A stretch of 64,000 bases of DNA. It comes from Planctomycetota bacterium. Lineage in GTDB: Bacteria; Planctomycetota; SZUA-567; H5-PLA8. The stretch is taken from contig JBBRPR010000022.1 in assembly GCA_038227875.1 (NCBI GenBank), positions 32,001 to 96,000 on the forward strand, written 5' to 3'. Below, in pieces: positions 17,125 through 58,362 of this stretch. A model generated the notes under the pieces. It did no database searches and was not told the origin of the DNA. It worked only from the letters and a program-made list of their open reading frames with translations. The first letter of the stretch is position 1. Each line of letters begins with the position of its first letter. Both the position numbers and the translations under genes were made by a program.

Positions 17125-17982
17125 CTATATTGCGCGCAACACCGCTACCTGCTTCAACGTTTCGCTGGTGATCGCCAGGAAGTCTTCCTTGGTCAGCCCG
17201 ATACTCGTGGCCAGCTGATCGGGAATACTTACCTTAAAGGTGCGACGGTTATCGATCGCGGTGGACTCGACGCTGTGAGCCACGTGATCGGCGACGGCCA
17301 AAATGCGCCACGAATCCTTGGTTGAGGCGTCGCTGGGCTTGTCGTGGTGAGCGGCAATCGGCTTGACGACCAGGTCGGGAATCTTCCAGAACCGCAGCAG
17401 TTCTGCGCCGAGCGAGGCGTGTTGCGTACCGTAAATCTGCTGCTCGCGTTTCACCAGCTCTTCGCCAAAGAGTTGACCTTTGTTGCACAGTTCCAGATAG
17501 TCTTTTCCGGCCTGAGCCAGCAGGAGTTTGCCGATGTCGTGCAGAATTCCAGCGGTGAAGAAAAGGTCGGCGAAGCGGGGATTTAAGCGGCGGGCGAGTG
17601 TGCGCGCGAAGATGCCGGTCTTGAGCGAGTGGTCCCACTGCTCAGCGAAGAATTGTTCCATCTGCGGCGTGGTAGCCTTGAACATTTCTTTACCTTTGCA
17701 GGCGGCGGCGATCGACCAGATTTCGGTATAGCCCAGCCGCACGATGGCGTCATCAACGCTGCGGACAGTACGTACCGAGCCGTAGAATGCGGAATTGGCC
17801 GACTTCAGAATCTGTGCCGTCAGGCTGGCGTCTGACGAGAGCATGTCGACAAGTTTGTCGTTCTGCTGCTTGGCGTTGTTGAGCGCCTCAACCAGGCTCA
17901 GGAAGACGGTGGGGCAGACTGGAATTTTGATGTTGCGCTTCAGGATTTCTTCCAGCGTGAGCGGTTGCAGGGTTGAGACCAT
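17125..17982 (-). CDS. HDOD domain protein
   Basis: DASLTAQILKSANSAFYG, AIVRLG, WDHS, AGILHDIGKL, AAHH; GGAGG RBS before ATG 17982. Confidence 0.9.
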   Translation of the reverse strand: MVSTLQPLTLEEILKRNIKIPVCPTVFLSLVEALNNAKQQNDKLVDMLSSDASLTAQILKSANSAFYGSVRTVRSVDDAIVRLGYTEIWSIAAACKGKEMFKATTPQMEQFFAEQWDHSLKTGIFARTLARRLNPRFADLFFTAGILHDIGKLLLAQAGKDYLELCNKGQLFGEELVKREQQIYGTQHASLGAELLRFWKIPDLVVKPIAAHHDKPSDASTKDSWRILAVADHVAHSVESTAIDNRRTFKVSIPDQLATSIGLTKEDFLAITSETLKQVAVLRAI

Positions 17983-18029
17983 AACATCCTCCCGTGAGCA
18001 GAGACCAATGGCATCCTTCGCTTCCAGAT

Positions 18030-18056
18030 TCATCGGGGGGAAACGTACGAAATTCA
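18030..18056 (-). promoter_or_regulatory. Weak sigma28-like promoter for the HDOD gene
   Basis: Minus strand TGAA-N15-CCCGATGA. Confidence 0.35.
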
Positions 18057-18117
18057 GCCAGAAAAAATGTTCAGTGCGGAAATCCGTGCTGAACGCGAGG
18101 TTCAAAATGCGTCTGAA

Positions 18118-25827: not shown

Positions 25828-26852
25828 CGTTCCACCTCTGCTGCCACGTTTTGAATCGGCACCACCACATCGGCCAGACCAGCTTCGACCACCACTCCGG
25901 GCATACCCCACACCACACTGGATTCCTTGTCCTGCGCTATGATCCGCGCCTTATGGCGGCGCAATTCCTGGACACCGAGCAGACCATCGCGTCCCATGCC
26001 CGTCAGAATCGCGCCCAACGCCGCCTGACCGTAGACTTCGGCCACGGAACGGAAGAGGACATCGACCGCGGGACGACAGGAATTCTCCTGCGGCCGCTGA
26101 TCCAGCGCGGTGAACACCTGTCCTCCCATGCGCTTGACCGTGAGATGGTAATTTCCGGGCGCGATGTACGCGGTGCCTGGTGTCAGTAGCATGCCAGCTT
26201 CGGCCTCAACCACGGAAATTTCTGAATCCGCGTCGAGGCGTTCGGCCAGCAGGCGCGTGAACATCGGCGGCATGTGCTGGACGATCACGATAGGCACAGG
26301 GATATCTTTCGGCAGCATCGGAAGGAGTGTCGCCAGCGCATTGGGGCCGCCGGTGGAGACGCCGATTGCAACAATCTGCCGCTGCACGCGCTTATTTGAA
26401 TCGCGCCAGGTCGGCCGGATCACAGCTTGCGGCGCCGGGACATGGACTTTGAACTGCTTGATCTTGGCGATCAGTTCATCTTTGATGTACGCCGTATTGG
26501 CAGCCACACTGCCAAGATCGGCACCCTTGGGCAGGAAATCTGCCGCGCCAAGCGCCATCGCTTCGAGAGTCTGGGCGGCGCCGCGTTCGGAATGGACGCT
26601 GAACACGATCACGCGAATGTGCGGATGCGTGGCCTTCAGCCGCCGCAGCACGCCCATGCCGTCCAGTTCCGGCATTTCCAGATCGAGTGTGATCACGTCG
26701 GGGTTAAGCTGAGCGACTTTCTGCAGCGCGATGTTGCCATTGGGCGCGGTGCCGGCGAGTTGCAATTCCGGATCGGCGGAAATCACGTCGGAAACGACAC
26801 GACGGAAGACCACGGAATCATCCACAACCAGTACGCGCAGCGGCCTGTTCAT
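25800..26852 (-). CDS. cheB: Chemotaxis methylesterase CheB (REC + esterase)
   Basis: REC LDLEMP; GVSTGG, VQHMP, LTGMGRDG. Confidence 0.97.
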   Translation of the reverse strand: MNRPLRVLVVDDSVVFRRVVSDVISADPELQLAGTAPNGNIALQKVAQLNPDVITLDLEMPELDGMGVLRRLKATHPHIRVIVFSVHSERGAAQTLEAMALGAADFLPKGADLGSVAANTAYIKDELIAKIKQFKVHVPAPQAVIRPTWRDSNKRVQRQIVAIGVSTGGPNALATLLPMLPKDIPVPIVIVQHMPPMFTRLLAERLDADSEISVVEAEAGMLLTPGTAYIAPGNYHLTVKRMGGQVFTALDQRPQENSCRPAVDVLFRSVAEVYGQAALGAILTGMGRDGLLGVQELRRHKARIIAQDKESSVVWGMPGVVVEAGLADVVVPIQNVAAEVERCLSSAIAR

Positions 26853-27235
26853 TGCTCGATGGCTCCCATCAGCATCTGCAGCTTTTCCTGGAGCGCTTCG
26901 GGCCCAAAGGGTTTCATCAGGTATTCGTTGGCGCCTTCGTTCAGCGCCAGGACCACTCCTGCCATTTCCGATTCCGACGTGACCATGCAGACGCGCACGT
27001 CTTTAAACCGCACGTCGGCGCGCAGGACACGCAGACATTGGATGCCGTCCATCACCGGCATGTTCCAATCGAGCAGGATAAAACCGATTCCCGGAACGCG
27101 GTTGAGCGTCTCCAGTGCCGTGCGGCCGTTGTCGGCTTCGTAGACTTCAACTTGCAACGCACGGAGGCTGTTGCCCACGATGCGCCGGATAACACGGGAG
27201 TCATCCACAACCAGGGCTTTCAAAGGTCCGCTCAT
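26849..27235 (-). CDS. cheY: Chemotaxis response regulator CheY
   Basis: Single REC domain VVDDS, LDWNMP, MKPF, inside the che operon. Confidence 0.92.
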   Translation of the reverse strand: MSGPLKALVVDDSRVIRRIVGNSLRALQVEVYEADNGRTALETLNRVPGIGFILLDWNMPVMDGIQCLRVLRADVRFKDVRVCMVTSESEMAGVVLALNEGANEYLMKPFGPEALQEKLQMLMGAIEQ

Positions 27236-27745: not shown

Positions 27746-30490
27746 TTAAACCGAGGCCAGTTCCATAACCCGATCACGCTCGGTGGCGAGTTGCGATACA
27801 GCCTTCAGCAATTCTTCACGGTCAATCTTGACCAGATGACGGTCGAATCCGGATGAGGTCGAATGGCGGCGAACGTCATCGGACTCGAGACCGGAGAGCG
27901 CGATCAACGGCAGATGTTTGAGCTCCGGATTGGCGCGAATGGCTTCCGCCAGTTTCCAGCCGTCGACCTGCGGCATGTCGATGTCGCTGATGATGAAATC
28001 CACGGGATGAACAGAGAGGCGCTTCAAGGCTTCGGCGCCGTTGCTGGCTTCGTCCACGGTGTAGCCGGCGAATTCCAGGTACGAACGCGTGAGATTGCGG
28101 AAGAAGGGACTGTCGTCGACAAGCAGGATCTTGCGCACGCCTTTGCGCCCGGAGTTCTGGACAAACACCGGCTGCGACTGGCTGCGACGGAAAAACCCGG
28201 GGTTGGCCGCTTCGATCAGGGCGTAGGGATCCACGAACACCGTCGTCTTGCCCTGCACGATCGCAGTGCCAATGATTCCTGGCCGCTTGTTTTCCACCTG
28301 CGGACGGGCAGATTCGTCGACGATGTCCAGCAGCTTGTGCACGACCATGCCGATCGAGCGTTCGCCGTCGCTGAAGACGATTACCGGCAAGGTCGACGCA
28401 TCCGTCGGCGGAGTGACTCCGACGTGGCTGGCCATGCGCAGCAGCGGCATGACCTGACCGCGATACTGGACGACTTCCCCGTCGTTGGTGCGTTCGACGC
28501 GGGAGATCTGGAATTCCTCGAGACGCGAAACCATCGAGAGCGGCATCGCGAATCGCATCTGTTCGTCGAGTGTAAAGACCAGCAGTGTGGAGCGGTCGGC
28601 CTGTTCGACGGCGACCACTTCTGCCTGCTTGATTTCTTCCTTGTGTTCGGCGGCGTCGGCCGATTCCAACAGACCGGCGCTGTCGAGAATAAGCGCGACC
28701 TGGCCGTCACCCATGATCGTCGAGCCGGCGAAGGCGTGGATACTCTTCAGCGGCTTGACCACGATTTCTTCCGTGTCGTTGACGCTGTCCACGACCAGGC
28801 CGAAGACCTGGTTGTCGGCCGTGAGCACGACGATGTTCACGATCTCATCGCGCGCGGCTCCGTTGGAGAGGTTGGCTCCGGCCGCGTTGGATGTGGCACG
28901 GGTATCTTCCTCAAGCTTCAAAACACTGCGTAGACGGATCAGCGGCAGCAGGTTGCCGCGCAGGCGGTAGACTTCGATGCCCTGCATCCATTCGATACTC
29001 TTGCGTGCGGCTTCGCCTTCCAGACGCACCAGTTCGCGCAGATTGATCTGCGGGATGGCAAAGCGGTCGCCGTTGGCGGAGACGATCAGCGCGGGAATAA
29101 TGGCGAGCGTCAGTGGAATCTTGATCTTGAGCGTGGTGCCGTGTCCAAAGTTGTTGATCACATCCACTGCGCCGCCAATGCGTTCAATGTTGGTCTTGAC
29201 CACATCCATGCCGACGCCGCGGCCGGAGATCGACGTGATTTTCTCCGCCGTCGAGAAGCCGGGGCGGAAGATCAGGTTGACCGCTTCGCGTTCCGACATC
29301 CGTTCGGCTTGCTCTTCGGTGATCAGGCGCTGCTGAATGGCTTTGCGCTTGACGCGCTGAATGTCGATGCCGCCGCCGTCGTCGGCGACTTCAATGTTGA
29401 CCTGGCCGCCTTCGTGAAACGCACGCAGGCGGATTGTGCCACGGCGCGACTTGCCCTTGCGTACGCGTTCGTCGGGAGATTCCACGCCATGGTCGATGGC
29501 GTTGCGGACGATGTGAGTAAACGGATCCTTCACGGCCTCGAGGATGGTTTTATCCAGCTCGGTCTCCGCGCCTTCCACATGCAGGTCGACTTCCTTGCTC
29601 ATGGAATTGGAGACGTCGCGAACCAGCCGAGGCAGTTTGTTCCAGACGCCGCCGATGGGCTGCATGCGGGTCTTCATTACATTTTCCTGCAGTTCGGTGG
29701 TGATCAAGTTGAGTCGCTGCGAGGAATTCACGATGGCTTTGTTTTCCAGCGTCCCCGCGAACTGCAGAATCTGATTGCGTGTCAGCACCAGCTCGCCGAC
29801 GAGGTTCATCAGGCGGTCGAGCAGCGACACTTCGACGCGGATGGTGCTGTCCGCGGTGTTCGATTTGACGGCTTCGGCTGCCACGACATTGACGTCGCCG
29901 GAATCCTTTGGATGCGGTGCTTCGACATGTGGCACTTCAGTCACTGGCTTCGCCGGAGCAGGTACGACTGGAGCAGTCACGATGGGCGGCGTTGTAACAG
30001 GAGCCGTTACAATGGAAGGCGCTTCCATCGCTACGGTCGCCGCAGGCACCGCGGCCTTGATGGAAAGCCGCCGGGCGGGAGATGCGGCCGCGGACGAACC
30101 AGCTTCGGCCGGCGCGCCCTCCGCGATAGCTTTCAGCCGTTGAATAATCGGGGTGTAATCCTTGTCGCTCTCAGCGGAAGTCGCATCGATGGTGGCGAGG
30201 ACGTCCTTCACGGCGTCGACGCCTGCCAAAAGCGCGTCGATCGTCGCGGGGGTAGCCTTCATCTTTCCATCGCACATCTTGGCCAGAATGTCTTCGGCAA
30301 AGTGGCTGATGGAGACGAGTTTCGGAAAATTGAGAAAGCCGGCAGTACCTTTGATCGTATGGATCGTCCGGAAGATGCTGGCCAGCAATCCTGTGTTCTC
30401 AGGATCCTTTTCGAGCTGCACAAATTCTTGATCGAGACGCGATAGATTCTCGTTTGACTCAACCAGGAAGTCTCGTGTGATGTCGTCCAT
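27746..30490 (-). CDS. cheA: Hybrid chemotaxis kinase CheA (HPT-dimer-HATPase-CheW-CheW-REC)
   Basis: IFRTIHTIKG, HIVRNAIDHG, SGRGVGMDVV, two CheW-like domains, C-terminal REC (ISDIDMP). Confidence 0.97.
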   Translation of the reverse strand: MDDITRDFLVESNENLSRLDQEFVQLEKDPENTGLLASIFRTIHTIKGTAGFLNFPKLVSISHFAEDILAKMCDGKMKATPATIDALLAGVDAVKDVLATIDATSAESDKDYTPIIQRLKAIAEGAPAEAGSSAAASPARRLSIKAAVPAATVAMEAPSIVTAPVTTPPIVTAPVVPAPAKPVTEVPHVEAPHPKDSGDVNVVAAEAVKSNTADSTIRVEVSLLDRLMNLVGELVLTRNQILQFAGTLENKAIVNSSQRLNLITTELQENVMKTRMQPIGGVWNKLPRLVRDVSNSMSKEVDLHVEGAETELDKTILEAVKDPFTHIVRNAIDHGVESPDERVRKGKSRRGTIRLRAFHEGGQVNIEVADDGGGIDIQRVKRKAIQQRLITEEQAERMSEREAVNLIFRPGFSTAEKITSISGRGVGMDVVKTNIERIGGAVDVINNFGHGTTLKIKIPLTLAIIPALIVSANGDRFAIPQINLRELVRLEGEAARKSIEWMQGIEVYRLRGNLLPLIRLRSVLKLEEDTRATSNAAGANLSNGAARDEIVNIVVLTADNQVFGLVVDSVNDTEEIVVKPLKSIHAFAGSTIMGDGQVALILDSAGLLESADAAEHKEEIKQAEVVAVEQADRSTLLVFTLDEQMRFAMPLSMVSRLEEFQISRVERTNDGEVVQYRGQVMPLLRMASHVGVTPPTDASTLPVIVFSDGERSIGMVVHKLLDIVDESARPQVENKRPGIIGTAIVQGKTTVFVDPYALIEAANPGFFRRSQSQPVFVQNSGRKGVRKILLVDDSPFFRNLTRSYLEFAGYTVDEASNGAEALKRLSVHPVDFIISDIDMPQVDGWKLAEAIRANPELKHLPLIALSGLESDDVRRHSTSSGFDRHLVKIDREELLKAVSQLATERDRVMELASV

Positions 30491-30756: not shown

Positions 30757-32055
30757 TTAATTCTTGGCGGCGTAGGCCTTGGCTTCCGGCGACGGATCTT
30801 TCGTCAGCAACTTCTGGAGCAAGGTGTAAATCATCTGGCGTTCGTCTTCGCCGATCGGCGTTTCACCTTTGGTTCGCTGCACCTGTTCGATCACCTGCTG
30901 TACGCCGTTGTTTTCCAGATCGCGCGTGGAGGTTACGAATTCCAGGCGCCCGTCCATCAACACGAATCGTTCGATCACGTTTCGCAATTCGCGAACGTTG
31001 CCTGGCCAAGTGTGCTTCTGCAGTATCGCTTTGTTTTCATCGGTGAGCGTAGGGATTTCGCCGCTGATGTCCTTGGAGAAATGCTTTACGAAATTCTCAG
31101 CGAGCGGAATCACGTCGGCTGGGCGTTCTCGCAATGGCAATAAGTGAATTGGAATGACCGCGAGTCGATAATACAAATCTTCTCGGAAGCGGCCCTGCCG
31201 CACCGCGGCGGCCAGATCGACATTCGTGGCGGCGATCACGCGTGCTTCGAGCGGAATTTCCTGAGTGCCACCGACGCGCCGGAAGTTGCGTTCCTGCAAC
31301 ACGCGCAGCAGCTTGCTCTGCAGTTCCAGCGTCAGGTCGCCGATTTCGTCGAGGAAGATCGAGCCATCGCCCGCGGCTTCGAAGTAGCCCTTGCGCGTGG
31401 CTTTGGCGTCGGTGAACGAACCTTTCTCGTGTCCAAACAACTCACTTTCCACGAGCGTGACTGGGATTGCGGAGCAATTCACGGCGACGAAGGGCTTGTC
31501 GCGGCGGTCGCTGGACCGGTGCAATCGACGTGCAACGACTTCTTTTCCTGTGCCAGTCTCACCGGTTATGAGAACGGTGGTCGTGCGACTGCGGGCGATT
31601 GTGCGCAACTTCATGGCGACTTCGCGCATGGGATTGCTGACGGCCATCATCTCGTTGTCGGAATGGTTCGCGGGATCAGCGGTTTCCTTGGCGGGCGTTT
31701 TGGTCAGGCTGATTTTGCGGAGGATTTCAAGCAAGGTGTTGATGTTGAATGGCTTGGGCAGAGCTTCGAACGCACCGAGCTTCATTGCTCGCACGGTTTC
31801 AAGCACGCCGATCGAGCCGCTCACGATGATGATCTTCATGTCAGCCGAAACACGCTTTACGCGCTGAAGTACTTCAAAGCCGTCCATTTCCGGGAGATTG
31901 ATGTCGAGGAGCATCGCGTCGTACGTATTGTGCTCGACCATCTCGACAGCCTGCGAACCTGTGTTGGCGATGGTGACCATCCACCCTTGCTGCTGAATCG
32001 CCATCTGAAGCATGTTGCAACACAGTGGGTTGTCTTCCGCGACTAGGATATGCAC
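30757..32055 (-). CDS. Sigma54-dependent response regulator (REC-AAA+), no evident HTH
   Basis: REC LLDINLP, GETGTGKE, ELFGHEKGSFTDA, FLDEIG, WPGNVRELRN; C-terminal 60 aa lack a Fis-type HTH. Confidence 0.92.
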   Translation of the reverse strand: MHILVAEDNPLCCNMLQMAIQQQGWMVTIANTGSQAVEMVEHNTYDAMLLDINLPEMDGFEVLQRVKRVSADMKIIIVSGSIGVLETVRAMKLGAFEALPKPFNINTLLEILRKISLTKTPAKETADPANHSDNEMMAVSNPMREVAMKLRTIARSRTTTVLITGETGTGKEVVARRLHRSSDRRDKPFVAVNCSAIPVTLVESELFGHEKGSFTDAKATRKGYFEAAGDGSIFLDEIGDLTLELQSKLLRVLQERNFRRVGGTQEIPLEARVIAATNVDLAAAVRQGRFREDLYYRLAVIPIHLLPLRERPADVIPLAENFVKHFSKDISGEIPTLTDENKAILQKHTWPGNVRELRNVIERFVLMDGRLEFVTSTRDLENNGVQQVIEQVQRTKGETPIGEDERQMIYTLLQKLLTKDPSPEAKAYAAKN

Positions 32056-38297: not shown

Positions 38298-38956
38298 GAC
38301 ACGGTTCTGGAAAAGCAATGGCGGTGGTGCTCTTCATCGTCGGAATTGCCGTCGGCCTGGCCATCGCCGTGGTTCCACGCGTGATGGGCAAGGACCTGTT
38401 CAAATCAATGGTGCCCGCGGAAGCTGCCGTCGCCACGAATCCCGATGAGAAGACCGAAGACAAAGCGGACGACAAAGATAAGTCGAAAAGCGGCGCCGCA
38501 CCCATGGTACATCCGAAGGAAGTGGAACTGCGCCGCATGATCGCCGACGTCTCCAAGCAGCGCGCGGCGCTCGACGAACGCGAAAAGCCGCTCGCTGTGC
38601 GCGAAGCCAAGATCAAGCAGGAACTCACCGCGCTGGAAGAATTGAAGAAGCAGATTGAAGACAACGAAGGCAAATTCAAGAAGGACATCGTCGAAGTCAA
38701 GACCGACGAAATCAAAAACACAAAGAAGCTGGCCAAGATCTGGTCGCAGATGGAACCCAGCGAAGTCGCCAAGATTGCCTCGGGGATGGACGTCGAACTG
38801 GTCGCCAAGATTCTTGGCGCGATGACCGAACGCCAGGCGGCGACGATCATGGGCTCGCTCACCGCGCTGCCCGATGCAGGCAAGCTCGCACCGGAACTGA
38901 TCGTGAAACTTAAGCAGATGAAGGTGGCCGCGCCGCCCGTCACGGAGGCCAACTGA
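38294..38956 (+). CDS. MotE/YlxF/FlbB-like flagellar protein (TM + coiled coil + MgtE_N-like)
   Basis: KKLAKIWSQMEPSEVAKI...ILGAMTERQAATIM; position between fliJ and fliK. Confidence 0.8.
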   Translation: MRHGSGKAMAVVLFIVGIAVGLAIAVVPRVMGKDLFKSMVPAEAAVATNPDEKTEDKADDKDKSKSGAAPMVHPKEVELRRMIADVSKQRAALDEREKPLAVREAKIKQELTALEELKKQIEDNEGKFKKDIVEVKTDEIKNTKKLAKIWSQMEPSEVAKIASGMDVELVAKILGAMTERQAATIMGSLTALPDAGKLAPELIVKLKQMKVAAPPVTEAN

Positions 38957-40995
38957 TGTCTACCGTCTCGACCAGTTCCACGGGTACGCCACCGCTCAGT
39001 GGCAGTCCGGTTCCCGCCTCTCCCGTCCCGGCCAATCCGAGCGATGGCGCACCGGCGCAGTCATTCAGCGACGTGCTGAACTCCATGCCAAATTCCGCGC
39101 CAACCTTGGCCGCGCCTGTCGCATCAACGGCGCCCGCTCCAGTGGCACCGCAAACGAACGGGCAGTCCGCCAAGTCTTTCAACTCCACGGCAGCGGCTGC
39201 CTCCAATACGACTGCAAACGAAACGGCCTCTTCCACGCGTTCTGATTATGTAGAGCCGAATGACATCTCGACGTTGCCTGACTCCGCGGCGAATGGTACC
39301 GACCTGGCGGCCTTGCCTGCCGCGTCCACCGTTTCTCCAGACGAAGACAACGCGAATCTGCAGGCGTCGGTTCCGGTAAATTCCAATGGAAGAATCACGC
39401 TATCCGCGGCCGACGCCAGGGCCGCGAATGCAAAAATCCTGCGCGCGCTGGCACTCACGAACGCGCCCGCTCCGCTACTCATCAATCCTCTTGCCGTCGC
39501 TTCGGATTCCAATGCGCAAAGCGCGCCCGTAACGGCGGCGGTTCCACAGGACAACAGCAAAAACAGCGACGATGATGCGCAGGCTGCCACGGATTCGCCA
39601 TCCACTTCCGAGCAGGTTCAAGCGCAACCGGTCGCGGTGCCGCCTCCCATGCAAGTATGTATTCCGCCGATCCCGGCGCCTGTCCAGGCCAGCTTCACTC
39701 CAACCACGAACACAAACACGGATGGGGAGAGTGACGCAGCTTCCGGAGAGCGCACACCCATCACCGCGTCATCCACATTTAACGCCAGCACCCAGCCTAC
39801 GCGCATCATGGTCAACGCCGCCACTGTGCGCGATCGGTATGCACAGACGGATTCAACGCCACACTCCAGCGACGCAGCTGCGCCAGATCAGGCCGCGAGC
39901 ACGCAGCTTGATCCGTTGCGAAACCTGTTGGATACCATGACTCCCGTCGATGCTGCGCCAGTCGCTCCTGCGTCCGATACCACGCTCTACAGTCAGAATG
40001 ACGCAGCGTCCATCGTTCCGGCGGACACGTTCACAATACGGACGACGACAACAGCCACCGCTGGCCAGAGTACGAAAGCCGGCGCCAAATCGAGCACTGT
40101 GGAGAATGCGTCGAATTCCACGGTGGTGGCTCATTCGAACACGCTCGCGAGTGCTCCCTCTATCATCCAAACCGCAGCGCAGTCGGCGGCACTGTCGAAC
40201 GACACGGTTTCAACGTCGAATGCGAGCGCCGCAGCGGCCACGATAGCAGCCGTCAGCACCGATACTCAAAACGCCCGCGGTACCAGCGAAACAGGTTCGA
40301 ATTTCCCAAAGAATTCCGCTCAACCCGCGTCGTTTTCGAACGATCAGTTCAATGTCGCCGCGCCCGTTGCTCCGGCCCTGTCCGCCGGATCGACCGACGC
40401 GAATGCAAACAATGCCGACACCGCGTTTGGCCACGACCGGCAAGCGTCTTCAGCTTCACAGCTCGACTCCGACGCGCCCGCAAGCGGCCCTGCCGCCAAT
40501 GGGTCGAAGGCTGAAACTTTTGCAGCGAATGCATTTTCTGCAGTCGCGCCCGGTGGCTATTGGACGGAAAAAACTCCGGATGCCGCGCCTGCGAAAACCT
40601 CCGAAGTTTTCAATCAAGTTCTCGACGTTCTTCCAAAGCCTTTGCAGGCAACGACCATAACGATCAAGCCGGAAGGCTATGGCGCGATCACCATCCGCGT
40701 AACCCCTCAGCCGCTGGACACCGCGTCGCCGTGGCGAATTTCCATTCGCACCTCCGATGCTTCGGCGCACGCCTTGCTTTCACAGAATGTTGCCGAACTT
40801 CGGCAAAATTTAAAAGGCGATCCTGCGCATGTGTTTGGATCGCTGAAACCGGCGCTGCAGGCCAGCGCCACTCAGGAAACGCCAATGCGCCAGGACAGTC
40901 AGAATTCAAAGGGCGGACAACGGCAGGATTTTGAGCAACGGCAGCGCAACAGGTCCCGCGGATTCGTCTTCGAATTACCGGAACTGGACGCGTAA
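38956..40995 (+). CDS. fliK: Hook-length control protein FliK (long, 679 aa)
   Basis: A/S/T/P-rich disordered body; C-terminal ITIKPEGYGAITIRV...LLSQNVAELRQNL; directly before flgD. Confidence 0.82.
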   Translation: MSTVSTSSTGTPPLSGSPVPASPVPANPSDGAPAQSFSDVLNSMPNSAPTLAAPVASTAPAPVAPQTNGQSAKSFNSTAAAASNTTANETASSTRSDYVEPNDISTLPDSAANGTDLAALPAASTVSPDEDNANLQASVPVNSNGRITLSAADARAANAKILRALALTNAPAPLLINPLAVASDSNAQSAPVTAAVPQDNSKNSDDDAQAATDSPSTSEQVQAQPVAVPPPMQVCIPPIPAPVQASFTPTTNTNTDGESDAASGERTPITASSTFNASTQPTRIMVNAATVRDRYAQTDSTPHSSDAAAPDQAASTQLDPLRNLLDTMTPVDAAPVAPASDTTLYSQNDAASIVPADTFTIRTTTTATAGQSTKAGAKSSTVENASNSTVVAHSNTLASAPSIIQTAAQSAALSNDTVSTSNASAAAATIAAVSTDTQNARGTSETGSNFPKNSAQPASFSNDQFNVAAPVAPALSAGSTDANANNADTAFGHDRQASSASQLDSDAPASGPAANGSKAETFAANAFSAVAPGGYWTEKTPDAAPAKTSEVFNQVLDVLPKPLQATTITIKPEGYGAITIRVTPQPLDTASPWRISIRTSDASAHALLSQNVAELRQNLKGDPAHVFGSLKPALQASATQETPMRQDSQNSKGGQRQDFEQRQRNRSRGFVFELPELDA

Positions 40996-41493: not shown

Positions 41494-42402
41494 ATGTCCA
41501 TTGAATCGATGTATACCGCGGTTTCCTCGCTGCAGGCGCATCAGCAGTACCTCAGCGTGGTCGCGAACAATCTGGCCAATGTGGATACGATCGGATTCAA
41601 GGACAGCCGCGTGCTGTTCTCCGACGCCATCTCGCAGACGCTGCAGCAGCCCACCGCGTCGTCGGGCCTGAACCCCGGCGGCAATGGCTCGCAGATCGGC
41701 CTGGGTGTCGGCCTGAGCAGCATTACGCCGCTGTTCACGCAGGGCTCCTTGATGTCGACGGGCGTGCCCACCGATCTGGCGATCAGCGGCAAAGGCTTCT
41801 TCGTGGTGAAGGATCCGACCGTCGCTCCGGCCAGCACGTACTACACGCGCGCCGGCGCGCTTAATCTGCAGAATTCCTCCGTCGCCGGCATCCAGGGCTA
41901 TCTCGTCACGCCCACGGGCCAGCGCGTACAGGGTGCGGTCATCACCGCGCCGGCCACGGCCGCCGCCAATGGTGCCGCGCTCGCCGATGTCACCATCCCG
42001 ACGACGGCCGGCGGTCCTCCGGCGCTCAACGTTACTGACTACAACATCGATTCGTCAGGCCGCGTCAATCTGCTTCTCTCGGACGGCAGCAATGTGCCGT
42101 GGATGCAGATCGGTCTGCAGAATTTCCAGAATCCCGAAGCGCTCCTGAAGGTCGGCCAGAACTTGTACCAGGCTTCGCTGGCCTCCGGCGCGCTGTTCAC
42201 CGGCGGCGGCACCGATGTCTTCCAGACTCCGGGCACCAGCGGCACGGGCAATCTCCGCTCCGGCTATCTCGAACAGTCCAACGTCGACCTGGGTACCGAG
42301 TTCTCGAATATGATCCAGGCCGAGCGCGGACTGCAGGCCAGCGCCCGAGTCATCACGACTTCTGACGAAGTAATGCAAGAGCTCATTAACCTCAAGCATT
42401 AG
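41494..42402 (+). CDS. flgE: Hook protein FlgE (short form, 302 aa)
   Basis: VVANNLANVDTIGFK, TDLAISGKGFF, YYTRAG, LEQSNVDL; follows flgD. Confidence 0.9.
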   Translation: MSIESMYTAVSSLQAHQQYLSVVANNLANVDTIGFKDSRVLFSDAISQTLQQPTASSGLNPGGNGSQIGLGVGLSSITPLFTQGSLMSTGVPTDLAISGKGFFVVKDPTVAPASTYYTRAGALNLQNSSVAGIQGYLVTPTGQRVQGAVITAPATAAANGAALADVTIPTTAGGPPALNVTDYNIDSSGRVNLLLSDGSNVPWMQIGLQNFQNPEALLKVGQNLYQASLASGALFTGGGTDVFQTPGTSGTGNLRSGYLEQSNVDLGTEFSNMIQAERGLQASARVITTSDEVMQELINLKH

Positions 42403-44532: not shown

Positions 44533-45051
44533 GTGAGCGCCACTGAACAAGCTGCACCAGAGCAAGCTTCAGCACATGGAGCCCCTGCGAAACCAAAGTC
44601 CAAGATCATGCTGATGGGAATCGGTGGCGTCGTTTTCGGCGCGCTGGGACTCGGCGGGTACATGATGTTCTTCAAAGGTTCGGCCCATCAGCCGCCGCCG
44701 CAGGAGAAGACCGCGACACCCGTCGCCGCTGGCGAAGAAAAGCGCGCCAAGGCGCAAGTCATCACTCTGAAGCCGATCGTCGTCAACTTGCGTAACAGCA
44801 AAGGGACGCGGTACTTGAAGGTCACCGTGGCGATGGAAACCACCTCGAAAGAGGCGGCCGAAGAGTTGGGCACTTTAAGCCCGCAGATCAGCGACCTCTT
44901 CGTCGACAAGCTCAGCAACGTAGAAATCACGGACGTGGACAACTCCGCCGGCCGCAACCGGTTGAAGCGAGAATTGCTCTCGGGCATCAACGAACTCCTT
45001 GAAAAGGGTTCGATCAACACCATCTACTTCACCGAGTTTGTCATTCAGTAG
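44533..45051 (+). CDS. fliL: Basal body-associated protein FliL
   Basis: Single TM, IVVNL...RYLKV, IYFTEFVIQ. Confidence 0.93.
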   Translation: MSATEQAAPEQASAHGAPAKPKSKIMLMGIGGVVFGALGLGGYMMFFKGSAHQPPPQEKTATPVAAGEEKRAKAQVITLKPIVVNLRNSKGTRYLKVTVAMETTSKEAAEELGTLSPQISDLFVDKLSNVEITDVDNSAGRNRLKRELLSGINELLEKGSINTIYFTEFVIQ

Positions 45052-45067
45052 GAGCGGACGAGAAGCG

Positions 45068-46051
45068 ATGGCCAACCTGCTTTCTCAAAACGAAGTCGAT
45101 ACGCTGATGCAGGCCATCTCGTCGGGCACTGTTCCGGCGACCGAAGACAAGGCCAAGCAGCCCGTAAAAGTCCGCCGCGACGCCAAGCTCTACGACTTCC
45201 GCCATCCCGTCATGTTCCTCAAGGATCAGCTGCGCACACTGCAGATGATCCACGAGTCCTTCGCCCGCAACTTTTCCAATTCGCTGGCCTCGTACCTGCG
45301 CATGGGTGTGAAAGCCAAGTGCACCGGCGTCGACCAGATTTCCTACGGCGAATTCGCGCTCTCGCTGCCAGACCCCTGTACGATCGTGAACACCCGCTTC
45401 CATCCGTCCGAAGGCCGCACGCTGCTGGCGATTCATCCGGCCGTGGGCATCGGCGTAATCGATCGCGTCATGGGTGGAACTGGCGCGGGCGGATCGCTCA
45501 ACAGGCCGTTTACGGAAATCGAACAGACCATCATCGATGAACTCGTCAACATGACGCTCCGCGACCTGGAACCGGCGTGGAACCGCATCTTGAAAGTCTC
45601 CTTCACCGCGGAAGCCACTGAACAGAGCACGCAGTTCATCCAGATCGCCAACATGGAAGACACCGTCGTCTCCGCGACGCTGGAAGTGAACTTCGCCGAG
45701 ACCAGCGGCATCGTCAGTCTCTGCTATCCGTTCCGTTCGCTGAACACCGTTGCCGAACGTTTGAACGCCAAGCATTGGGTTGAAGAAGAACAGAAGGCAC
45801 AGGCCGCCAAGAGCAAGACCGCCGGCATGGCCTCGATCAGTCAGATTCCGCTGCAAATGGCTGCGAACCTTGGTGTTGCGCACATCACCATGCACGACTT
45901 AATGCAACTGAAGAAGGGCGACGTGCTGCTGTTGAACCGCGAGATCGATCAACCGATTGAATTGGAAGTCGGCGGCAAGGTCCGTTTCACGGGACGACTG
46001 GGTGCGCGCCACGGTCATACCGCCGTACAGATTGAACAACGCTCGATGTGA
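45068..46051 (+). CDS. fliM: Motor switch protein FliM
   Basis: LLSQNEVDTL CheY-binding peptide, LYDFRHP, MGGTG, FTEIEQ, C-terminal SpoA domain. Confidence 0.96.
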   Translation: MANLLSQNEVDTLMQAISSGTVPATEDKAKQPVKVRRDAKLYDFRHPVMFLKDQLRTLQMIHESFARNFSNSLASYLRMGVKAKCTGVDQISYGEFALSLPDPCTIVNTRFHPSEGRTLLAIHPAVGIGVIDRVMGGTGAGGSLNRPFTEIEQTIIDELVNMTLRDLEPAWNRILKVSFTAEATEQSTQFIQIANMEDTVVSATLEVNFAETSGIVSLCYPFRSLNTVAERLNAKHWVEEEQKAQAAKSKTAGMASISQIPLQMAANLGVAHITMHDLMQLKKGDVLLLNREIDQPIELEVGGKVRFTGRLGARHGHTAVQIEQRSM

Positions 46052-46077
46052 TTTGGAAGACTTAAGGGAGAAGAACC

Positions 46078-46827
46078 ATGGGTAATGCCGTCGCCACCGA
46101 TACGCTCAAAGCTCTGATCGTCGACCCCGACGAGAAGCGCGCGACCACGCTTGTAGATGCACTGAAGAACTGCGGCTATTCGCCCGTCACCGCCGAGGAC
46201 GAAATGTCCGCGCGCATGTTGGTGGACTCCGAGAAATTCGACGTCGTGCTCTGTTACGACAAAGTCGCCAACGGCACGGTGATGGAGGTTTTAAAGAGCC
46301 TCCACGAAGCCAATCCGGATCTGCCGGTGATCGTGTTGAGCGACGATCCCAAATCACCGCTCATCGCCGATGCCATTAAGGCAGGCGCCATTGACTCTTA
46401 TGCGACGTCGGAAAATTTAGCAGCGCTTTACCCCAAGCTGGCGGCGATTCAGGCTCAGCAGGAAGCGAAACACGAACATGCACATGCGCCTGCCCCCGCT
46501 GCGCCCGCCACGACGATTCATCCTGTCCGGTTGCCCCAATTGGGTGAAAGCGCCGCCAAGAACGAACCGGCCAACGTCGACCTAATCATGGATGTGCCCG
46601 TGGCCGTGAATGCGATCCTGGGCAACACCACGATGCGGATTTCCGAGCTGCTCCAGCTCGGGCCCGGAAGCGTCATCGAACTCGATAAACGCGCCGGCGA
46701 ACCCGTCGATATCTTCGTGAACGACAAGCTCATCGCCTTTGGTGAAGTCGTGGTCGTAAACGAAACTTTTGGCGTGCGAATTACAGAAGTGATCGACCCC
46801 AAGCAGCGCATCCAAGCGCTCGCCTAA
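46078..46827 (+). CDS. fliN: FliN with N-terminal pseudo-receiver domain
   Basis: C-terminal IMDVPVAV...LGPGSVIELDKRAGEPVDIFVN...GEVVVVNETFGVRI; N-terminal ~120 aa follow the REC pattern. Confidence 0.92.
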   Translation: MGNAVATDTLKALIVDPDEKRATTLVDALKNCGYSPVTAEDEMSARMLVDSEKFDVVLCYDKVANGTVMEVLKSLHEANPDLPVIVLSDDPKSPLIADAIKAGAIDSYATSENLAALYPKLAAIQAQQEAKHEHAHAPAPAAPATTIHPVRLPQLGESAAKNEPANVDLIMDVPVAVNAILGNTTMRISELLQLGPGSVIELDKRAGEPVDIFVNDKLIAFGEVVVVNETFGVRITEVIDPKQRIQALA

Positions 46828-46954
46828 TTCCTACGTTGTTCAGTTAATTCTATGAAGCTTCAAGTGTTAGGTATTGACCTTCGCGTCGAATATCCCTGCT
46901 GATTTCTCAAATGCAAAATTTGCCGACGGGAGAGCTAAAACTCTCCCGTCGAGC

Positions 46955-46969
46955 TGGCCTTCGGCTTGC
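46955..46969 (+). promoter_or_regulatory. Sigma54 -24/-12 promoter for fliO onward
   Basis: TGGCCTTCGGCTTGC. Confidence 0.7.
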
Positions 46970-47006
46970 ATCCTTCGGACATATCGGTTCATCCGGAGAA
47001 ATGTTT

Positions 47007-47699
47007 ATGCTGAAAGTTTCGAAAATCTGTGCGCTGGCGCTGATTTCTTTCTTCGCTCTGAACACACAGCCCCTGTTCGCCCAAGACGCCGAAGACATGG
47101 TGCTGAACCGCAAGGGCGAAGCGAACGCGCGTATCGACTTGAGCGTCCCGACAACGCACTCAGGCATGAACGCCTCGCGGGCCGAAAGCCTGGCGCTGCA
47201 GAGCTCCTCGAACATCCGCCTCGCCGGTCTCCTCCTGGTGCTGCTCGGGGCGTGCGGTGGTGCGACGGTGCTTTACTACAAGCGCCGCCGCGGCACTTCT
47301 TCCGCGACCGGCTCGCCCCGCTTGAACATTGTCGAACGCCTGCCCTTTGGACCCAACCGCGAATTCGTGCTCTTAAAGGCCTGCGACCGGATGCTGGTGG
47401 TCGCGGCGCATGGAAACCAGATCGTTTGCCTGACGGACATGGCCACCGATCTCGCTCCCGTGACTGCCGCGTCCATGCCCCACATGATGGAAGCTACCGG
47501 CCAGGCTCAAGATTACAGCGATGCAGCGCCGCTCTCCTACGAGTCGCTCTTCTCGCAGGTTCGCCGCCGCGCCTCGGGTGACGTGACCCCGCCGGCCCGC
47601 GCCAAGGCCCCGGCGCAGATGGCCAAAACCGCGCCTGTTCCCGTGCAGGTCGCCGCTCAAGAAAACGACTGGCCGGAAATTGAAGGAGCCGACAAGTGA
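47007..47699 (+). CDS. fliO: Export protein FliO/FliZ-like
   Basis: Signal-like N-terminus, TM, LNIVERLPFGPNREFVLLK...MLVV; directly before fliP. Confidence 0.8.
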   Translation: MLKVSKICALALISFFALNTQPLFAQDAEDMVLNRKGEANARIDLSVPTTHSGMNASRAESLALQSSSNIRLAGLLLVLLGACGGATVLYYKRRRGTSSATGSPRLNIVERLPFGPNREFVLLKACDRMLVVAAHGNQIVCLTDMATDLAPVTAASMPHMMEATGQAQDYSDAAPLSYESLFSQVRRRASGDVTPPARAKAPAQMAKTAPVPVQVAAQENDWPEIEGADK

Positions 47700-48484
47700 A
47701 CGTCCGCCGCTTACTTCCCTCAACCTGCACGCTGCTGTTGGCCGTCATGCTGGTGCTGATCGTTGTGGCGCCACACGCGATGGCTCAGGAAGCAGGCAAC
47801 ACCCCGACCGCCACGCCAGCGCCCTTTGAAGTCAAAGTCGGTGAAGACGGCCCGCGCCTCAGCGCCAACTTGAGCATCCTCATCGGCATGACGTTGCTGG
47901 CGATGCTCCCGGCCGCGCTGGTGATGATGACCTCGTTCACCCGCATCATCATCGTCCTGGGTTTCCTGAGAAACGCGCTCTCCACGCAGCAGACTCCGCC
48001 CAACATTGTGCTGATCGGCATCGCCATGTTTCTGACCCTTTTCATCATGGCCCCGACCATGGAACGCGTGCAGCAGAACGCCGTCGGACCGTACATGAAG
48101 GGCGATATCAACGCCACCGAAGCGATCGACAAGGGCCTGCTGCCGATGCGCGAATTCATGGGCAAGCAGACCCGCAAGAAGGACTTGGCGCTGATGGTTG
48201 ACCTCTCCCGCGCCAAGACGCCCAAGGACTTCAGTGAGATTCCAACCCTGACGCTGGTCCCAGCGTTCATGCTCAGTGAACTGCGCACCGCGTTTCAGAT
48301 GGGATTCCTGCTCTTCCTGCCGTTCCTGGTGATCGACCTGGTCGTCTCTTCTGTGCTGATGTCGCTGGGAATGATGATGGTGCCGCCGGCCAGCATCAGT
48401 CTGCCCTTGAAACTGCTCCTATTCGTCGCCGCAGATGGCTGGGACTTGCTCGTGAAATCACTCGTCGTCTCCTTTGGTGGATAG
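47696..48484 (+). CDS. fliP: Export gate protein FliP
   Basis: MTSFTRIIIV, QQTPPN, PAFMLSEL, MSLGMMMVPP, DGW. Confidence 0.97.
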   Translation: MNVRRLLPSTCTLLLAVMLVLIVVAPHAMAQEAGNTPTATPAPFEVKVGEDGPRLSANLSILIGMTLLAMLPAALVMMTSFTRIIIVLGFLRNALSTQQTPPNIVLIGIAMFLTLFIMAPTMERVQQNAVGPYMKGDINATEAIDKGLLPMREFMGKQTRKKDLALMVDLSRAKTPKDFSEIPTLTLVPAFMLSELRTAFQMGFLLFLPFLVIDLVVSSVLMSLGMMMVPPASISLPLKLLLFVAADGWDLLVKSLVVSFGG

Positions 48485-54650: not shown

Positions 54651-55046
54651 ATGTCGCAAGCCGTCGCCACTCCTCCAGCGCCAGCCCCTGCTACGGCAGC
54701 ACCTGCAGCGCCACGCGTTTCAAACCCAAACGCAGCCGGTTCACTGGTCCGCGCGTTCGCTTCTGCTCCGAAGGGCGCTCCGCCCAAGCCCGTCGAAGAA
54801 GAAGCCCCACCCCCGGAACCGCGTTACAACCCCGTGGAGCTGGCGATTTTTCTGCGGCAGACCGTGCTGGTGATCTGTGCGATGGCGGCCGTGAGTTGCG
54901 CAGGCGCGGCGCGTTATGGCAACCGCAGCTGGTTGATGGCCGTGATGTGCGCCGCAGTCGCTGCAATCGTCTCTGGCGTCATCGGCATGGCGCTTGCACG
55001 TAGTTTTGCAGAACATTGTTTGACCGAGGACACGCCCGTTAAATAG
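54651..55046 (+). CDS. Hypothetical two-TM protein with Pro/Ala-rich N-terminus
   Basis: 131 aa, starts 6 bp after flhG, two hydrophobic helices. Confidence 0.65.
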   Translation: MSQAVATPPAPAPATAAPAAPRVSNPNAAGSLVRAFASAPKGAPPKPVEEEAPPPEPRYNPVELAIFLRQTVLVICAMAAVSCAGAARYGNRSWLMAVMCAAVAAIVSGVIGMALARSFAEHCLTEDTPVK

Positions 55047-56800: not shown

Positions 56801-56875
56801 AATCTGTTCGGTGTCCGGCAAGCGTCCTAAAGTGCCCGGAAAATTTTGCGGCTGCCCTACTCGGAGATTTTCAAT

Positions 56876-57256
56876 ATGCGCGTTCTAGTGGTCGACGACT
56901 CCTCAACGATGCGGCGAATCCTCATCAACTGTCTGGCGAAGATCAAGGTGACCGACGTCGCCCAGGCAGGCGACGGCACCGAAGCGCTGACCGTGCTCGC
57001 CGCGCAAGGTCCCTTCGATCTGATGCTGACCGATTGGAACATGCCGCAGATGACCGGCATCGATCTCCTCAAGGCGGTGAAGGCCGACCCCAAGCTCACT
57101 GCCATGCCTGTGGTGATCGTGACGACCGAAGCGGAAAAGGAACGCATTGTCGAAGCGATCAAGTGCGGCGCGGCCAATTACATCGTCAAGCCGTTCACGC
57201 CCGAAACGCTGTACGAAAAGATCAAGAGCCTCGTGACGTTGCCCGCGCCGGCCTGA
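56876..57256 (+). CDS. cheY: Second CheY response regulator
   Basis: VVDDSSTMRRI, TDWNMP, VTTEAEK, YIVKPF. Confidence 0.93.
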   Translation: MRVLVVDDSSTMRRILINCLAKIKVTDVAQAGDGTEALTVLAAQGPFDLMLTDWNMPQMTGIDLLKAVKADPKLTAMPVVIVTTEAEKERIVEAIKCGAANYIVKPFTPETLYEKIKSLVTLPAPA

Positions 57257-57315: not shown

Positions 57316-58362
57316 ATGCTCAATTCGCTCCAGAACACCAAGGCGCCTTCGGCCACCGGCGCACCATCGGCCGGCGGTGACTCTCACAAATCGATCGCAG
57401 TGGCGGAAACGCAGAATCCGCCCAAACGCAAACTGCTCCAACCCGACAGTTTCAACGAGGTCAAGCTCGCGGAGGAATTCCGCGAGTCCACGAAGAACTG
57501 CAAGGCAATGTTCGCGGATCCCTCGTTCGATCTGCCCATGCTGCCGACCTCCGCGGTGCGCGTAATGAACCTGATCCAGGATCCCAACGCCTCGCCGAAA
57601 AAGATCGCCCACGCGCTCCAGACCGACACGGTGCTGACGGCTAAGTTCCTGCGCATGGCCAACTCGCCCTTCTATGCCGGCACGCGCGTGATCGACTCCG
57701 TCCATGTCGCCGTTGACCGACTGGGCATGGCCGTCACCAAGAATCTCGTCCTCAGTATTTCACTCAACGGCACGATTGTGCGCGAAAAGCGCCTGGGTCA
57801 CAGCGCCATGGGACTGTGGTCGCACGCCAACAACGCCGCGCTCGCCTCGCAGCTCCTGGCCCAGCGCCTGAGCATGCCACAGCAGGCCGCGTTCATGATG
57901 GGCCTGATGCACGACATCGGTAAACTCGCCGCGTGGGTCACCCTCAACAATATCCTGAGCAAGTATCCTGGCGTTCGGCCTGGCGTGCTCGAAATGCTGG
58001 TCGAAGAGAGCCATCTGGCCATGGGCGATGCACTGCTGACGATCTGGAAGATGCCGCTGGAAGTTCGCGTCGCTGCCGGCGCGCATCACAACATCGAATC
58101 CCTCAATACCGCGATGCAGTACGTGCTCGAGGTCTGTCCGGAAGTCAACGTCTCCGATTGCTCGGCCGTCGCCTCCACTGCCGCTTGTGTGATGCTCGCC
58201 GATCGCGCCTTGGGTGCGCTGGGACTGTCCGATGAAGAACTGGAGCTGGATGTGACCCAGCTGGAAGTGGCTGAAGAGATCGGACTGTCTCAGTCGCTTT
58301 TGATGACGTACCTGTCTCAATTGCCGAAGTATCTTCAGGACAACACGTTCCAGGATAAATAA
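57316..58362 (+). CDS. HDOD domain protein
   Basis: LPMLPTSA, LTAKFLRMANSPFY, WSHA, GLMHDIGKL, AHH. Confidence 0.9.
   Translation: MLNSLQNTKAPSATGAPSAGGDSHKSIAVAETQNPPKRKLLQPDSFNEVKLAEEFRESTKNCKAMFADPSFDLPMLPTSAVRVMNLIQDPNASPKKIAHALQTDTVLTAKFLRMANSPFYAGTRVIDSVHVAVDRLGMAVTKNLVLSISLNGTIVREKRLGHSAMGLWSHANNAALASQLLAQRLSMPQQAAFMMGLMHDIGKLAAWVTLNNILSKYPGVRPGVLEMLVEESHLAMGDALLTIWKMPLEVRVAAGAHHNIESLNTAMQYVLEVCPEVNVSDCSAVASTAACVMLADRALGALGLSDEELELDVTQLEVAEEIGLSQSLLMTYLSQLPKYLQDNTFQDK

Follow-up and report, generated by a model that had tools for sequence, protein, structure and literature searches.

A FliN protein fused to a predicted aspartate-less pseudo-receiver in a family of Planctomycetota

What would a response-regulator receiver do if it were built into the base of a flagellar rotor? 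The question is raised by a single gene in a 64,000-nucleotide stretch of DNA from a Planctomycetota bacterium (hereafter the window; positions 32,001 to 96,000 of contig JBBRPR010000022.1, assembly GCA_038227875.1). The gene (46078..46827, + strand; all coordinates are those of the window) is an open reading frame (ORF) with an ATG start, 249 amino acids and a stop codon, and a Shine-Dalgarno-like AAGGGAGA (46064..46071, + strand), read from the sequence, lies 6 bases 5′ of its ATG. Pfam and NCBIfam models match its product as a receiver (REC) domain followed by FliN, a protein of the flagellar cytoplasmic ring (C-ring), and we refer to it as REC-FliN. The flagellar switch ranks among the most thoroughly studied signalling machines. 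The C-ring base is known in two variants, plain FliN and the CheC-bearing FliY, to which REC-FliN adds a receiver-bearing form.

Both halves of the protein are real, well beyond chance. In Pfam, Response_reg (PF00072) matches residues 13–106 at 35.8 bits (cut-off 30.2; expectation value, E, 1e-8) and FliMN_C (PF01052) matches residues 169–239 at 94.9 bits (cut-off 23.8), while the NCBIfam fliN model TIGR02480 is reached with 106 bits (cut-off 84.05). A profile of the family compared with solved structures found FliN of the Salmonella C-ring (8umd, E 1.9e-32) and the receiver of NtrC1 (1zy2, E 1.4e-18). An AlphaFold2 model, with 38 family rows as its input alignment, folds the N-terminal part as a (β/α)5 unit, in the order β1 (10–15), α1 (19–31), β2 (34–39), α2 (42–51), β3 (56–60), α3 (68–78), β4 (84–88), α4 (94–101), β5 (106–109), and α5 (114–133). 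The block values of the predicted local distance difference test (pLDDT) are 82–89 over residues 11–110 and 71–72 over 111–130. When this part was compared with solved receivers in Foldseek, template modelling (TM) scores of 0.84–0.91 (target-normalised) were obtained at a root-mean-square deviation of 1.3–2.2 Å, the matches including Spo0F (6ifh), CheY (1u8t), and CpxR (4uhj). From the model, Foldseek and PF00072, the domain spans residues 10–133 (46105..46476, + strand).

A His/Ala/Pro-rich linker follows (residues 132–146; 46471..46515, + strand), whose length and sequence vary across the family and whose pLDDT is below 50, as it is throughout residues 133–165. Behind it stands a conserved segment, IHPVRLPQL (residues 147–155; 46516..46542, + strand), in which P149 and L152 are invariant in the family alignment. 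This segment aligns with the pre-SpoA segment of Salmonella FliN, where the plain FliNs of class relatives read AQFPEL, and by alignment it is the counterpart of the FPEL-type segment near the N-terminus of ordinary FliN. The FliMN_C (SpoA) domain, assigned by PF01052 and the 8umd match, covers residues 169–239 (46582..46794, + strand). The FliN part of the model has a pLDDT of 56–72 (predicted TM score, pTM, of the whole, 0.47), which is unsurprising because this domain folds as an intertwined dimer. A sequence-only reading of this DNA had proposed a receiver joined through a His/Ala/Pro linker to an intact FliN, and had named beforehand, as a test, whether the N-terminal region models as a receiver; the two above-cut-off Pfam matches, the linker at residues 132–146, and the (β/α)5 fold with its TM scores bear that architecture out. 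No Pfam match to CheC or CheX was obtained in the protein at E up to 1, and the FliY model NF005995 was matched through its FliN end (model positions 255–376) alone, with 134 bits against a cut-off of 218.

Is REC-FliN the FliN of this organism, or an extra copy? Its start lies 26 bases beyond the stop of fliM at 46051 (fliM, 45068..46051, + strand; likely start ATG 45068; Pfam matches to FliM and FliMN_C), and fliO is its downstream neighbour (46911..47699, + strand; PF04347, 28 bits), within a gene order, established from ORFs and Pfam, of fliL-fliM-REC-FliN-fliO-fliP-fliQ-fliR-flhB-flhA. PF01052 has two matches in the whole 9.3 Mb genome, and because these are FliM and REC-FliN alone, the fused protein is the organism's FliN and no extra paralogue; the assembly comprises 176 contigs and is 88% complete, so that a second FliN copy could have been missed. 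The codons for L152 and L155 are TTG, candidate internal starts for a REC-less FliN, with no ribosome-binding site seen by eye. Internal translation starts are known for some injectisome SctQ proteins.

A joining of a CheY-like gene to fliN by misassembly or miscalling would be the simplest way to dismiss the fusion, and this explanation is refuted. The gene is one open frame with a conserved linker position, the same uninterrupted fusion recurs in 42 clusters from several sources and in seven genomes (see below), and a contig of an independent run (X2, record 12) crosses the junction unchanged: it spans 46259–46542, which takes in receiver sequence, the linker, and the beginning of FliN, with zero differences or indels. 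The X2 run and a further run, X3, leave parts of 45000–47700 uncovered. Separately, the X2 run carries four extra bases (GTAA) after 46047; by reading, they recreate ATG TAA, leave the FliM protein the same, and lengthen the fliM–fliN spacer by 4 bases.

To what extent does the fusion occur elsewhere? A word-indexed search of 5.8 billion protein clusters, from which the 120 best matches were listed, contained both domains in at least 38 clusters (P0001–P0034, P0037–P0040); the sole organism-named cluster among these is a Planctomycetota metagenome-assembled genome (MAG). An exhaustive hidden Markov model (HMM) search of 1.84 billion 50%-identity representatives, of which the best 150 were examined, yielded at least seven full-length fusions (P0009, P0030, P0037, P0121, P0122, P0124, and P0130; P0124 is cut at its C-terminus). 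The 38 clusters and four new ones from the HMM search make up the 42 cluster representatives analysed here. Within the window's own family (f1, 17 species genomes), FliN was matched (E up to 1e-12) in seven genomes, with receiver and FliN both covered in all seven; the other ten gave no FliN match at that threshold. Other families of the same class carry plain FliN in open frames of 139–169 amino acids, the comparison extending over 41 relatives, including one unpublished genome (G017) whose only row lacks a FliN match. Of 401 genomes sampled evenly across the phylum, 17 matched at E up to 1e-25, four of them full-length—all from f1—and 13 through the FliN part alone. A genome-contig search with FliN-domain peptides returned 80 loci, 79 of which are ordinary FliN or FliY of other phyla; the one full-length fusion (L015) stands in a record titled Planctomycetota MAG. 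The fusion is real, rare, and, among the genomes searched, confined to one Planctomycetota family.

Sequences that seemed to depart from this architecture were rejected on inspection. Two apparent REC-less forms are truncated calls: P0125 comes from a 391-base contig, and P0035 starts inside α4 while its cluster holds a 241-amino-acid member. P0246 likewise is a truncated call that ends in the linker. Among the other candidates for longer or split forms, P0226 and P0123 proved to be kinases with several receivers and no FliN, P0222 and P0212 are CheC-FliN, and P0036, from a close relative, is a frame that passes from the C-terminus of FliM into the receiver. As a side observation, one 405-amino-acid metagenome protein (P0126) combines a TIR domain (PF13676, 73.8 bits) with two following FliMN_C domains, and a 213-amino-acid metagenome protein (P0144) resembles a shorter relative of it; the TIR-FliMN_C protein may possibly be defence-related.

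The fused sequences go by the database name 'FliN' and nothing else. Searches of full-text articles, mostly from outside the subscription journals, turned up no account of a naturally occurring fusion of a receiver with FliN, although an earlier mention in a domain census is possible. In the papers examined, 'CheY-FliN' denotes binding between two separate proteins, FliM_N-CheY is an engineered fusion (PMC7957414), and the main text of a 2025 pseudo-receiver review (PMC12632262) contains neither FliN nor FliM. The earlier supposition that this is not a common, described architecture agrees with both its rarity and the absence of a description found in print.

Can the receiver half be phosphorylated? 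An alignment of the REC-FliN family with E. coli CheY (K-12 record) places D16-P17 (46123..46128, + strand) at the acidic pair D12-D13 of CheY, so that the second acid is gone; Y60-D61 (46255..46260, + strand) at the phospho-acceptor D57, with Tyr at that position and an Asp after it; S88 (46339..46341, + strand) at T87; and T110-S111 (46405..46410, + strand) at K109-P110, with loss of the catalytic Lys. S107 aligns with CheY Y106. Of the catalytic quintet (DD, D, T/S, K) D16 and S88 are left and three of five residues are gone, exactly the substitutions read earlier from the letters, namely Tyr followed by Asp at the phospho-acceptor and T-S in place of Lys-Pro. According to PMC12632262, a pseudo-receiver is a receiver that is missing any of the five residues, and an aspartate-less one if the Asp is gone. 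Because the domain is recognised computationally as a receiver yet has no phospho-acceptor Asp, the N-terminus of REC-FliN is classed under that definition as an aspartate-less pseudo-receiver. As Asp, Lys, and one of the metal-binding acids are missing, phosphorylation control at the canonical site is very unlikely, and we hold it highly probable that the pseudo-receiver works independently of phosphorylation.

The site is degenerate across most of the family. Over the 42 representatives the phospho-acceptor position reads Q in 22, H in six, D in four, N in three, Y, K, and P in two each, and C in one. Asp and Lys are both gone in 36 (Q 22, H 6, N 3, Y 2, K 2, C 1), and two more (P0037, P0040) keep the DD pair but have Pro at the Asp position. 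One might argue that phosphorylation persists at the neighbouring D61 or by some non-canonical route: in 34/42 representatives the residue after the lost Asp is acidic, and D16 and D18 remain in the window protein. However, that neighbour is Glu (24) more often than Asp (10), the phosphoryl-binding Lys is absent in 38/42, and the second metal-binding acid is absent in 36/42, all of which make such a route very improbable.

Four of the 42 representatives have all five catalytic residues intact (P0038, P0039, P0121, and P0130), and these are also the four with Lys at the K109 position. They score 104–107 bits on PF00072, compared with 35.8 for the window protein. At the level of genomes, the canonical form occurs in four members of the family (G002, G006, G007, and G012) and the degenerate form in three (the window genome G000, G011, and G013). 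The canonical proteins of these sister genera (loci L006–L009) share the same fusion and the operon FliL-FliM-REC-FliN-FliO and, unlike the window protein, retain DD, D, T, and K. Judged by these residues they are likely phosphorylatable, and they are themselves undescribed.

How the two forms are related was addressed in a tree of the last ~105 residues (the FliN part alone, with receiver columns left out). To the 42 representatives were added six sequences from family loci, five plain FliNs of the class as outgroup, and nine hand-picked FliN or FliY sequences without a receiver, giving 62 rows. All 48 REC-FliN rows fall on one side of a branch with a Shimodaira–Hasegawa-like approximate likelihood ratio test (SH-aLRT) support of 98, and canonical plus DD-only rows (SH-aLRT 85) are sister to the degenerate rows (85). 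This topology, from a quick search over few columns that carried a long-branch warning and used an outgroup of our own choosing, agrees with a single fusion and a single main loss of the site without proving either. The window form is probably derived from a phosphorylatable REC-FliN of the kind still present in the sister genera. The FliN part itself (46516–46827) is ~57% identical to betaproteobacterial (Achromobacter) FliN versus 38–46% to the plain FliN of its own class; flagella are patchy in the family, and the flagellar cluster may have a separate history.

To which receivers is the N-terminal domain akin? The sequence-only reading had called it a CheY-like pseudo-receiver, of which the fold and the degenerate site stand and the subfamily does not. 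For REC-FliN, the 25 best of 49 NCBIfam families do not include the CheY model NF007901, although the two CheY proteins encoded in the window reach 129 and 93 bits on it. The receivers P0121 and P0038 of the sister clade score best against the FixJ, NtrC, NosR, AtoC, RssB, and ZraR models, again with the CheY model absent from the best 25, and the best matches of sister-clade receivers in the window genome are the N-terminal receivers of 438–564-amino-acid proteins, not the CheYs. By profile, the receiver is FixJ/NtrC-like, and 'CheY-like' is true of its fold alone.

If the domain has lost its chemistry, is it kept for anything? A formerly phospho-regulated receiver might be drifting without function, tolerated at the N-terminus of FliN. 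The receiver indeed evolves faster than FliN (mean pairwise identity 0.43 versus 0.72 among the 36 degenerate members), and former active-site positions vary freely. Yet the linker (residues 133–146) is far less conserved than the domain (0.22), all 36 degenerate representatives hold a full-length open receiver, the REC-less members being truncated calls, the fold is modelled with pLDDT 82–89, and α5 is nearly invariant. Receiver positions kept in at least 90% of the degenerate members are L13, C32, G33, L117, K120, L121, and Q125, with P119 in 33/36. The best-conserved stretch of the receiver is the α5 motif LYPKLAAIQ (residues 117–125; 46426..46452, + strand), with L117 in 36/36, K120 in 35/36, L121 in 36/36, and Q125 in 35/36, which is better kept than most of the receiver core. 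Because identity is 0.43 in the receiver against 0.22 in the linker and α5 is kept in 33–36 of 36, the conservation pattern argues that the domain is maintained, not decaying, and a functionless remnant is accordingly quite improbable.

The conserved face offers a hint as to what is being maintained. L117, K120, and L121 align with CheY L116, K119, and L120; across the full set of 42 representatives, the first position is always L, the second is K or R in 41, and the third is always L or I. In CheY, K119 is salt-bridged to D12 of the FliM peptide (10.1101/781468; PMC3774744). All six family FliMs conserve this N-terminal peptide and carry D or E at the residue that matches D12. In the window, this peptide (MANLLSQNEVDTLM, 45068–45109) has the pattern LSQxE(V/I)D, the usual CheY-binding type; the LSQxE motif that had been noticed earlier in FliM is retained from 45068 onwards. 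A complex prediction between the receiver (residues 1–135, 38-row alignment) and FliM 1–45 (6-row alignment) scored 0.00 in both runs, without controls, and weighs neither way.

We infer incorporation into the ring, stoichiometry, partner, and effect on switching as follows. As elsewhere in bacteria, the SpoA domain and the IHPVRLPQL segment would form the rotor base, FliM_C:FliN3, and the 15-residue linker would tie each FliN to a receiver fold, giving up to three receivers per FliM. In the Salmonella C-ring, FliM and FliN stand as FliM:FliN3 and the FliN N-termini make inter-subunit contacts, as described in PMC11302681. The pseudo-receiver would then be a constitutive, phosphorylation-independent contact module on the base of the switch complex, with the α5-centred face as its working surface. 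Its partner would most likely be the FliM N-terminal peptide and, next to that, a neighbouring receiver. It would establish a baseline state or a sensitivity, and diffusible, phosphorylated CheY (CheY-P) from a complete Che pathway would act on top of this. That the domain might mimic or compete with CheY, as proposed from the sequence alone, is hinted at only by the conserved K119-equivalent Lys and the tether. The parts of this explanation differ in strength: we regard the architecture as close to certain, whereas any specific partner of the α5 face can be named only tentatively, and the composite—a phosphorylation-independent contact module that decorates the switch base and tunes the response to CheY-P—appears to us about evenly poised between right and wrong.

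Several observations weigh against it. The model shows no confident packing of the receiver on FliN, as its pTM of 0.47 and linker pLDDT below 50 indicate. Most other residues with which CheY contacts the FliM peptide have been lost: the CheY Y106 position reads V in 22, I in eight, and S in six members, the K122 position is A in 32/42, and the K92 position is S in 26/42. The receiver lies outside the CheY subfamily, with FixJ/NtrC-type best matches in the sister clade. Moreover, α5 belongs to the dimer faces of NtrC/FixJ-type receivers described in PMC12632262, so that pairing between receivers would fit its conservation equally well.

This last point leads to the main rival, a purely structural explanation in which pseudo-receivers pair and thereby stiffen or widen the FliN spiral, or act as an assembly or spacer element, with no signalling. 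FliN works as dimers within FliM:FliN3 (PMC11302681), and PMC12632262 reports fifteen solved pseudo-receivers that are dimeric without phosphorylation as well as NtrC and FixJ families that dimerise through α4-β5 and α1-α5 faces. In REC-FliN, conservation peaks in α5 and in the α1-β2 loop (C32, G33), the best profile match among solved receivers is NtrC1 (1zy2, 1.4e-18), and the sister-clade receivers are FixJ/NtrC-like. A brace of this kind would, however, leave the complete phospho-acceptor site of the sister genera unexplained, as that site implies an origin in signalling, and we consider the explanation unlikely, if deserving of attention.

Do the sister genomes with the canonical form point to signalling through the ring? 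The CheY1 protein of the window, used as a query, found no match at E up to 1e-15 in G007 and, in G006 and G012, 33%-identical stretches in 236-amino-acid frames alone. On the CheY model, the best scores are 100 bits in G013 and 80 in G002, whereas G006, G007, and G012 give 58–61, a level any receiver reaches. A CheA dimerisation domain was found in G002 alone among G002, G006, G007, G012, and G011; CheW and methyl-accepting chemotaxis proteins (MCPs) are present in G006 (in one cluster), G011, and G013. In G007 (91% complete) and G012 (93%), none of CheA, CheW, or MCP was found, and the FliM N-terminal peptide is kept in both despite this, which we count among the hints that the receiver engages that peptide. 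The generalisation that all genomes with canonical REC-FliN do without chemotaxis genes was rejected, as G002 has CheA and G006 the CheW/MCP cluster. The survey covers few genomes, which are incomplete and related to one another, and Che parts do occur in two of the four with the canonical form; we therefore treat it as a lead, not a finding, that the motor of G007 and G012 may take input through the fused receiver.

A more radical alternative takes in the whole family, with REC-FliN as a response regulator that forms part of the rotor. In the canonical form the C-ring itself would accept the phosphoryl group, a kinase could thus address the motor with no need of a diffusible CheY, and the receiver would grip the FliM peptide in cis; the window form would be a phosphorylation-independent competitor to CheY-P. 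Such a regulator fits the retention of the FliM peptide in G007 and G012, where no CheA, CheW, MCP, or CheY-type protein was found. If it were true, the pseudo-receivers of the window, about three per FliM, would pre-occupy or prime the FliM peptide, a previously unknown way to set motor bias and gain. The Che absence rests on genomes that are 91–93% complete, and G006, a congener of G012, has a Che-like cluster; we consider a rotor-built response regulator distinctly doubtful.

Alternatively, the pseudo-receiver could be a docking platform or sensor for some other regulator or ligand, such as HDOD proteins or FlhG encoded nearby, or a nucleotide second messenger, and would then contact that partner in place of FliM or another receiver. 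The flagellar cluster encodes FlhF and FlhG and has an HDOD gene right after cheY1, CheY-like proteins that bind c-di-GMP and then the motor are known (PMC5677366), and the Pfam model of the FleQ N-terminal domain matches REC-FliN weakly, below threshold (21.5 bits, cut-off 22). That match, however, is what any receiver gives, and no ligand-binding motif was identified, which renders this role improbable.

How does REC-FliN—taken as a contact module on the switch base—compare with systems already characterised? With FliN it shares the SpoA domain and the segment that precedes it, a gene between fliM and fliO, and 57% identity to Achromobacter FliN; it differs at its N-terminus, where a folded domain of ~125 residues takes the place of the short and weakly conserved extension of ordinary FliN. 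Closest in design among known proteins is FliY of Bacillus and Thermotoga, which likewise places a signalling module N-terminal to a FliN domain at the switch. According to PMC7355467, FliY has a FliN-like C-terminal domain and, in many species, replaces FliM and FliN or accompanies them. Its module has the CheC/CheX fold, whereas the window protein has a receiver fold, and no phosphatase function is implied for it.

With CheY the receiver shares the (β/α)5 fold (TM ~0.85 to E. coli CheY structures), a Lys at K119 and Leu at 116 and 120, and CheY acts next to FliM, which is where REC-FliN is located. CheY is diffusible, however, while the window receiver is tethered, is without D13, D57, and K109, and has not kept Y106 and K122. 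Pseudo-receivers such as FrzS and the FleQ N-terminal domain likewise have a receiver fold without a phospho-acceptor and work by protein contacts; for FrzS, PMC1974792 reports that the protein, without the Asp, fails to bind Mg2+. None of these FrzS/FleQ-type pseudo-receivers is inside the flagellar rotor or fused to FliN. REC-FliN is, in sum, a FliN and a pseudo-receiver, and it is not a catalytic receiver, a member of the CheY subfamily, or a FliY.

If the Salmonella stoichiometry holds, about three receivers would accompany each FliM, on the order of a hundred per ring, at the place where CheY-P acts. The family moreover provides a natural before-and-after series of complete and lost phospho-acceptor sites. 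It bears on whether a tethered rather than a diffusing receiver can act on the rotor, and on the role a pseudo-receiver takes after phosphorylation is lost, which PMC12632262 names as an open problem. REC-FliN is of interest to specialists in both motors and two-component systems, and its domains are small and soluble-looking, which would make the mechanism accessible in vitro without culturing the organism.

The gene is embedded in a large flagellar and chemotaxis cluster within the window. The cluster comprises cheX, cheR, cheB, cheY2, and a cheA-cheW-REC hybrid; a sigma-54 response regulator; flgB/C, fliE, F, G, H, and I, a fliK-like gene, flgD, and flgE; motA, motB, fliL, fliM, REC-FliN, fliO, P, Q, and R, flhB, and flhA; and flhF, flhG, fliA, cheY1, an HDOD gene, flgM, flgG, and flgI. 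The hybrid cheA (27746..30490, − strand) encodes, by Pfam, Hpt, H-kinase_dim, and HATPase_c domains, two CheW-like stretches, and a C-terminal REC domain. Both cheY genes encode canonical single-domain proteins: cheY1 (56846..57256, + strand) is matched by E. coli CheY in phmmer at 2.7e-33 and reaches 129 bits on NF007901, and cheY2 (26849..27235, − strand), located between cheA and cheB, reaches 93 bits. In the alignment, both products retain DD, D57, T87, Y106, K109, and K119.

Some further features of the window deserve mention in their own right. The HDOD gene of the flagellar cluster lies directly after cheY1 (57316–58362, +), and a second HDOD gene (17125–18105, −) adjoins a PAS-GAF hybrid histidine kinase. 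At the position of fliK, 38956–40995 (+) encodes a 679-amino-acid protein rich in Ser, Ala, Thr, and Pro, with a sub-threshold Flg_hook match (19.9 versus 29.8 bits). After flgD, a short hook-type protein of 302 amino acids (41494–42402, +) has rod/hook N- and C-terminal domains and one D1 domain. Finally, a 131-amino-acid ORF between flhG and fliA (54651–55046, +) has no Pfam match.

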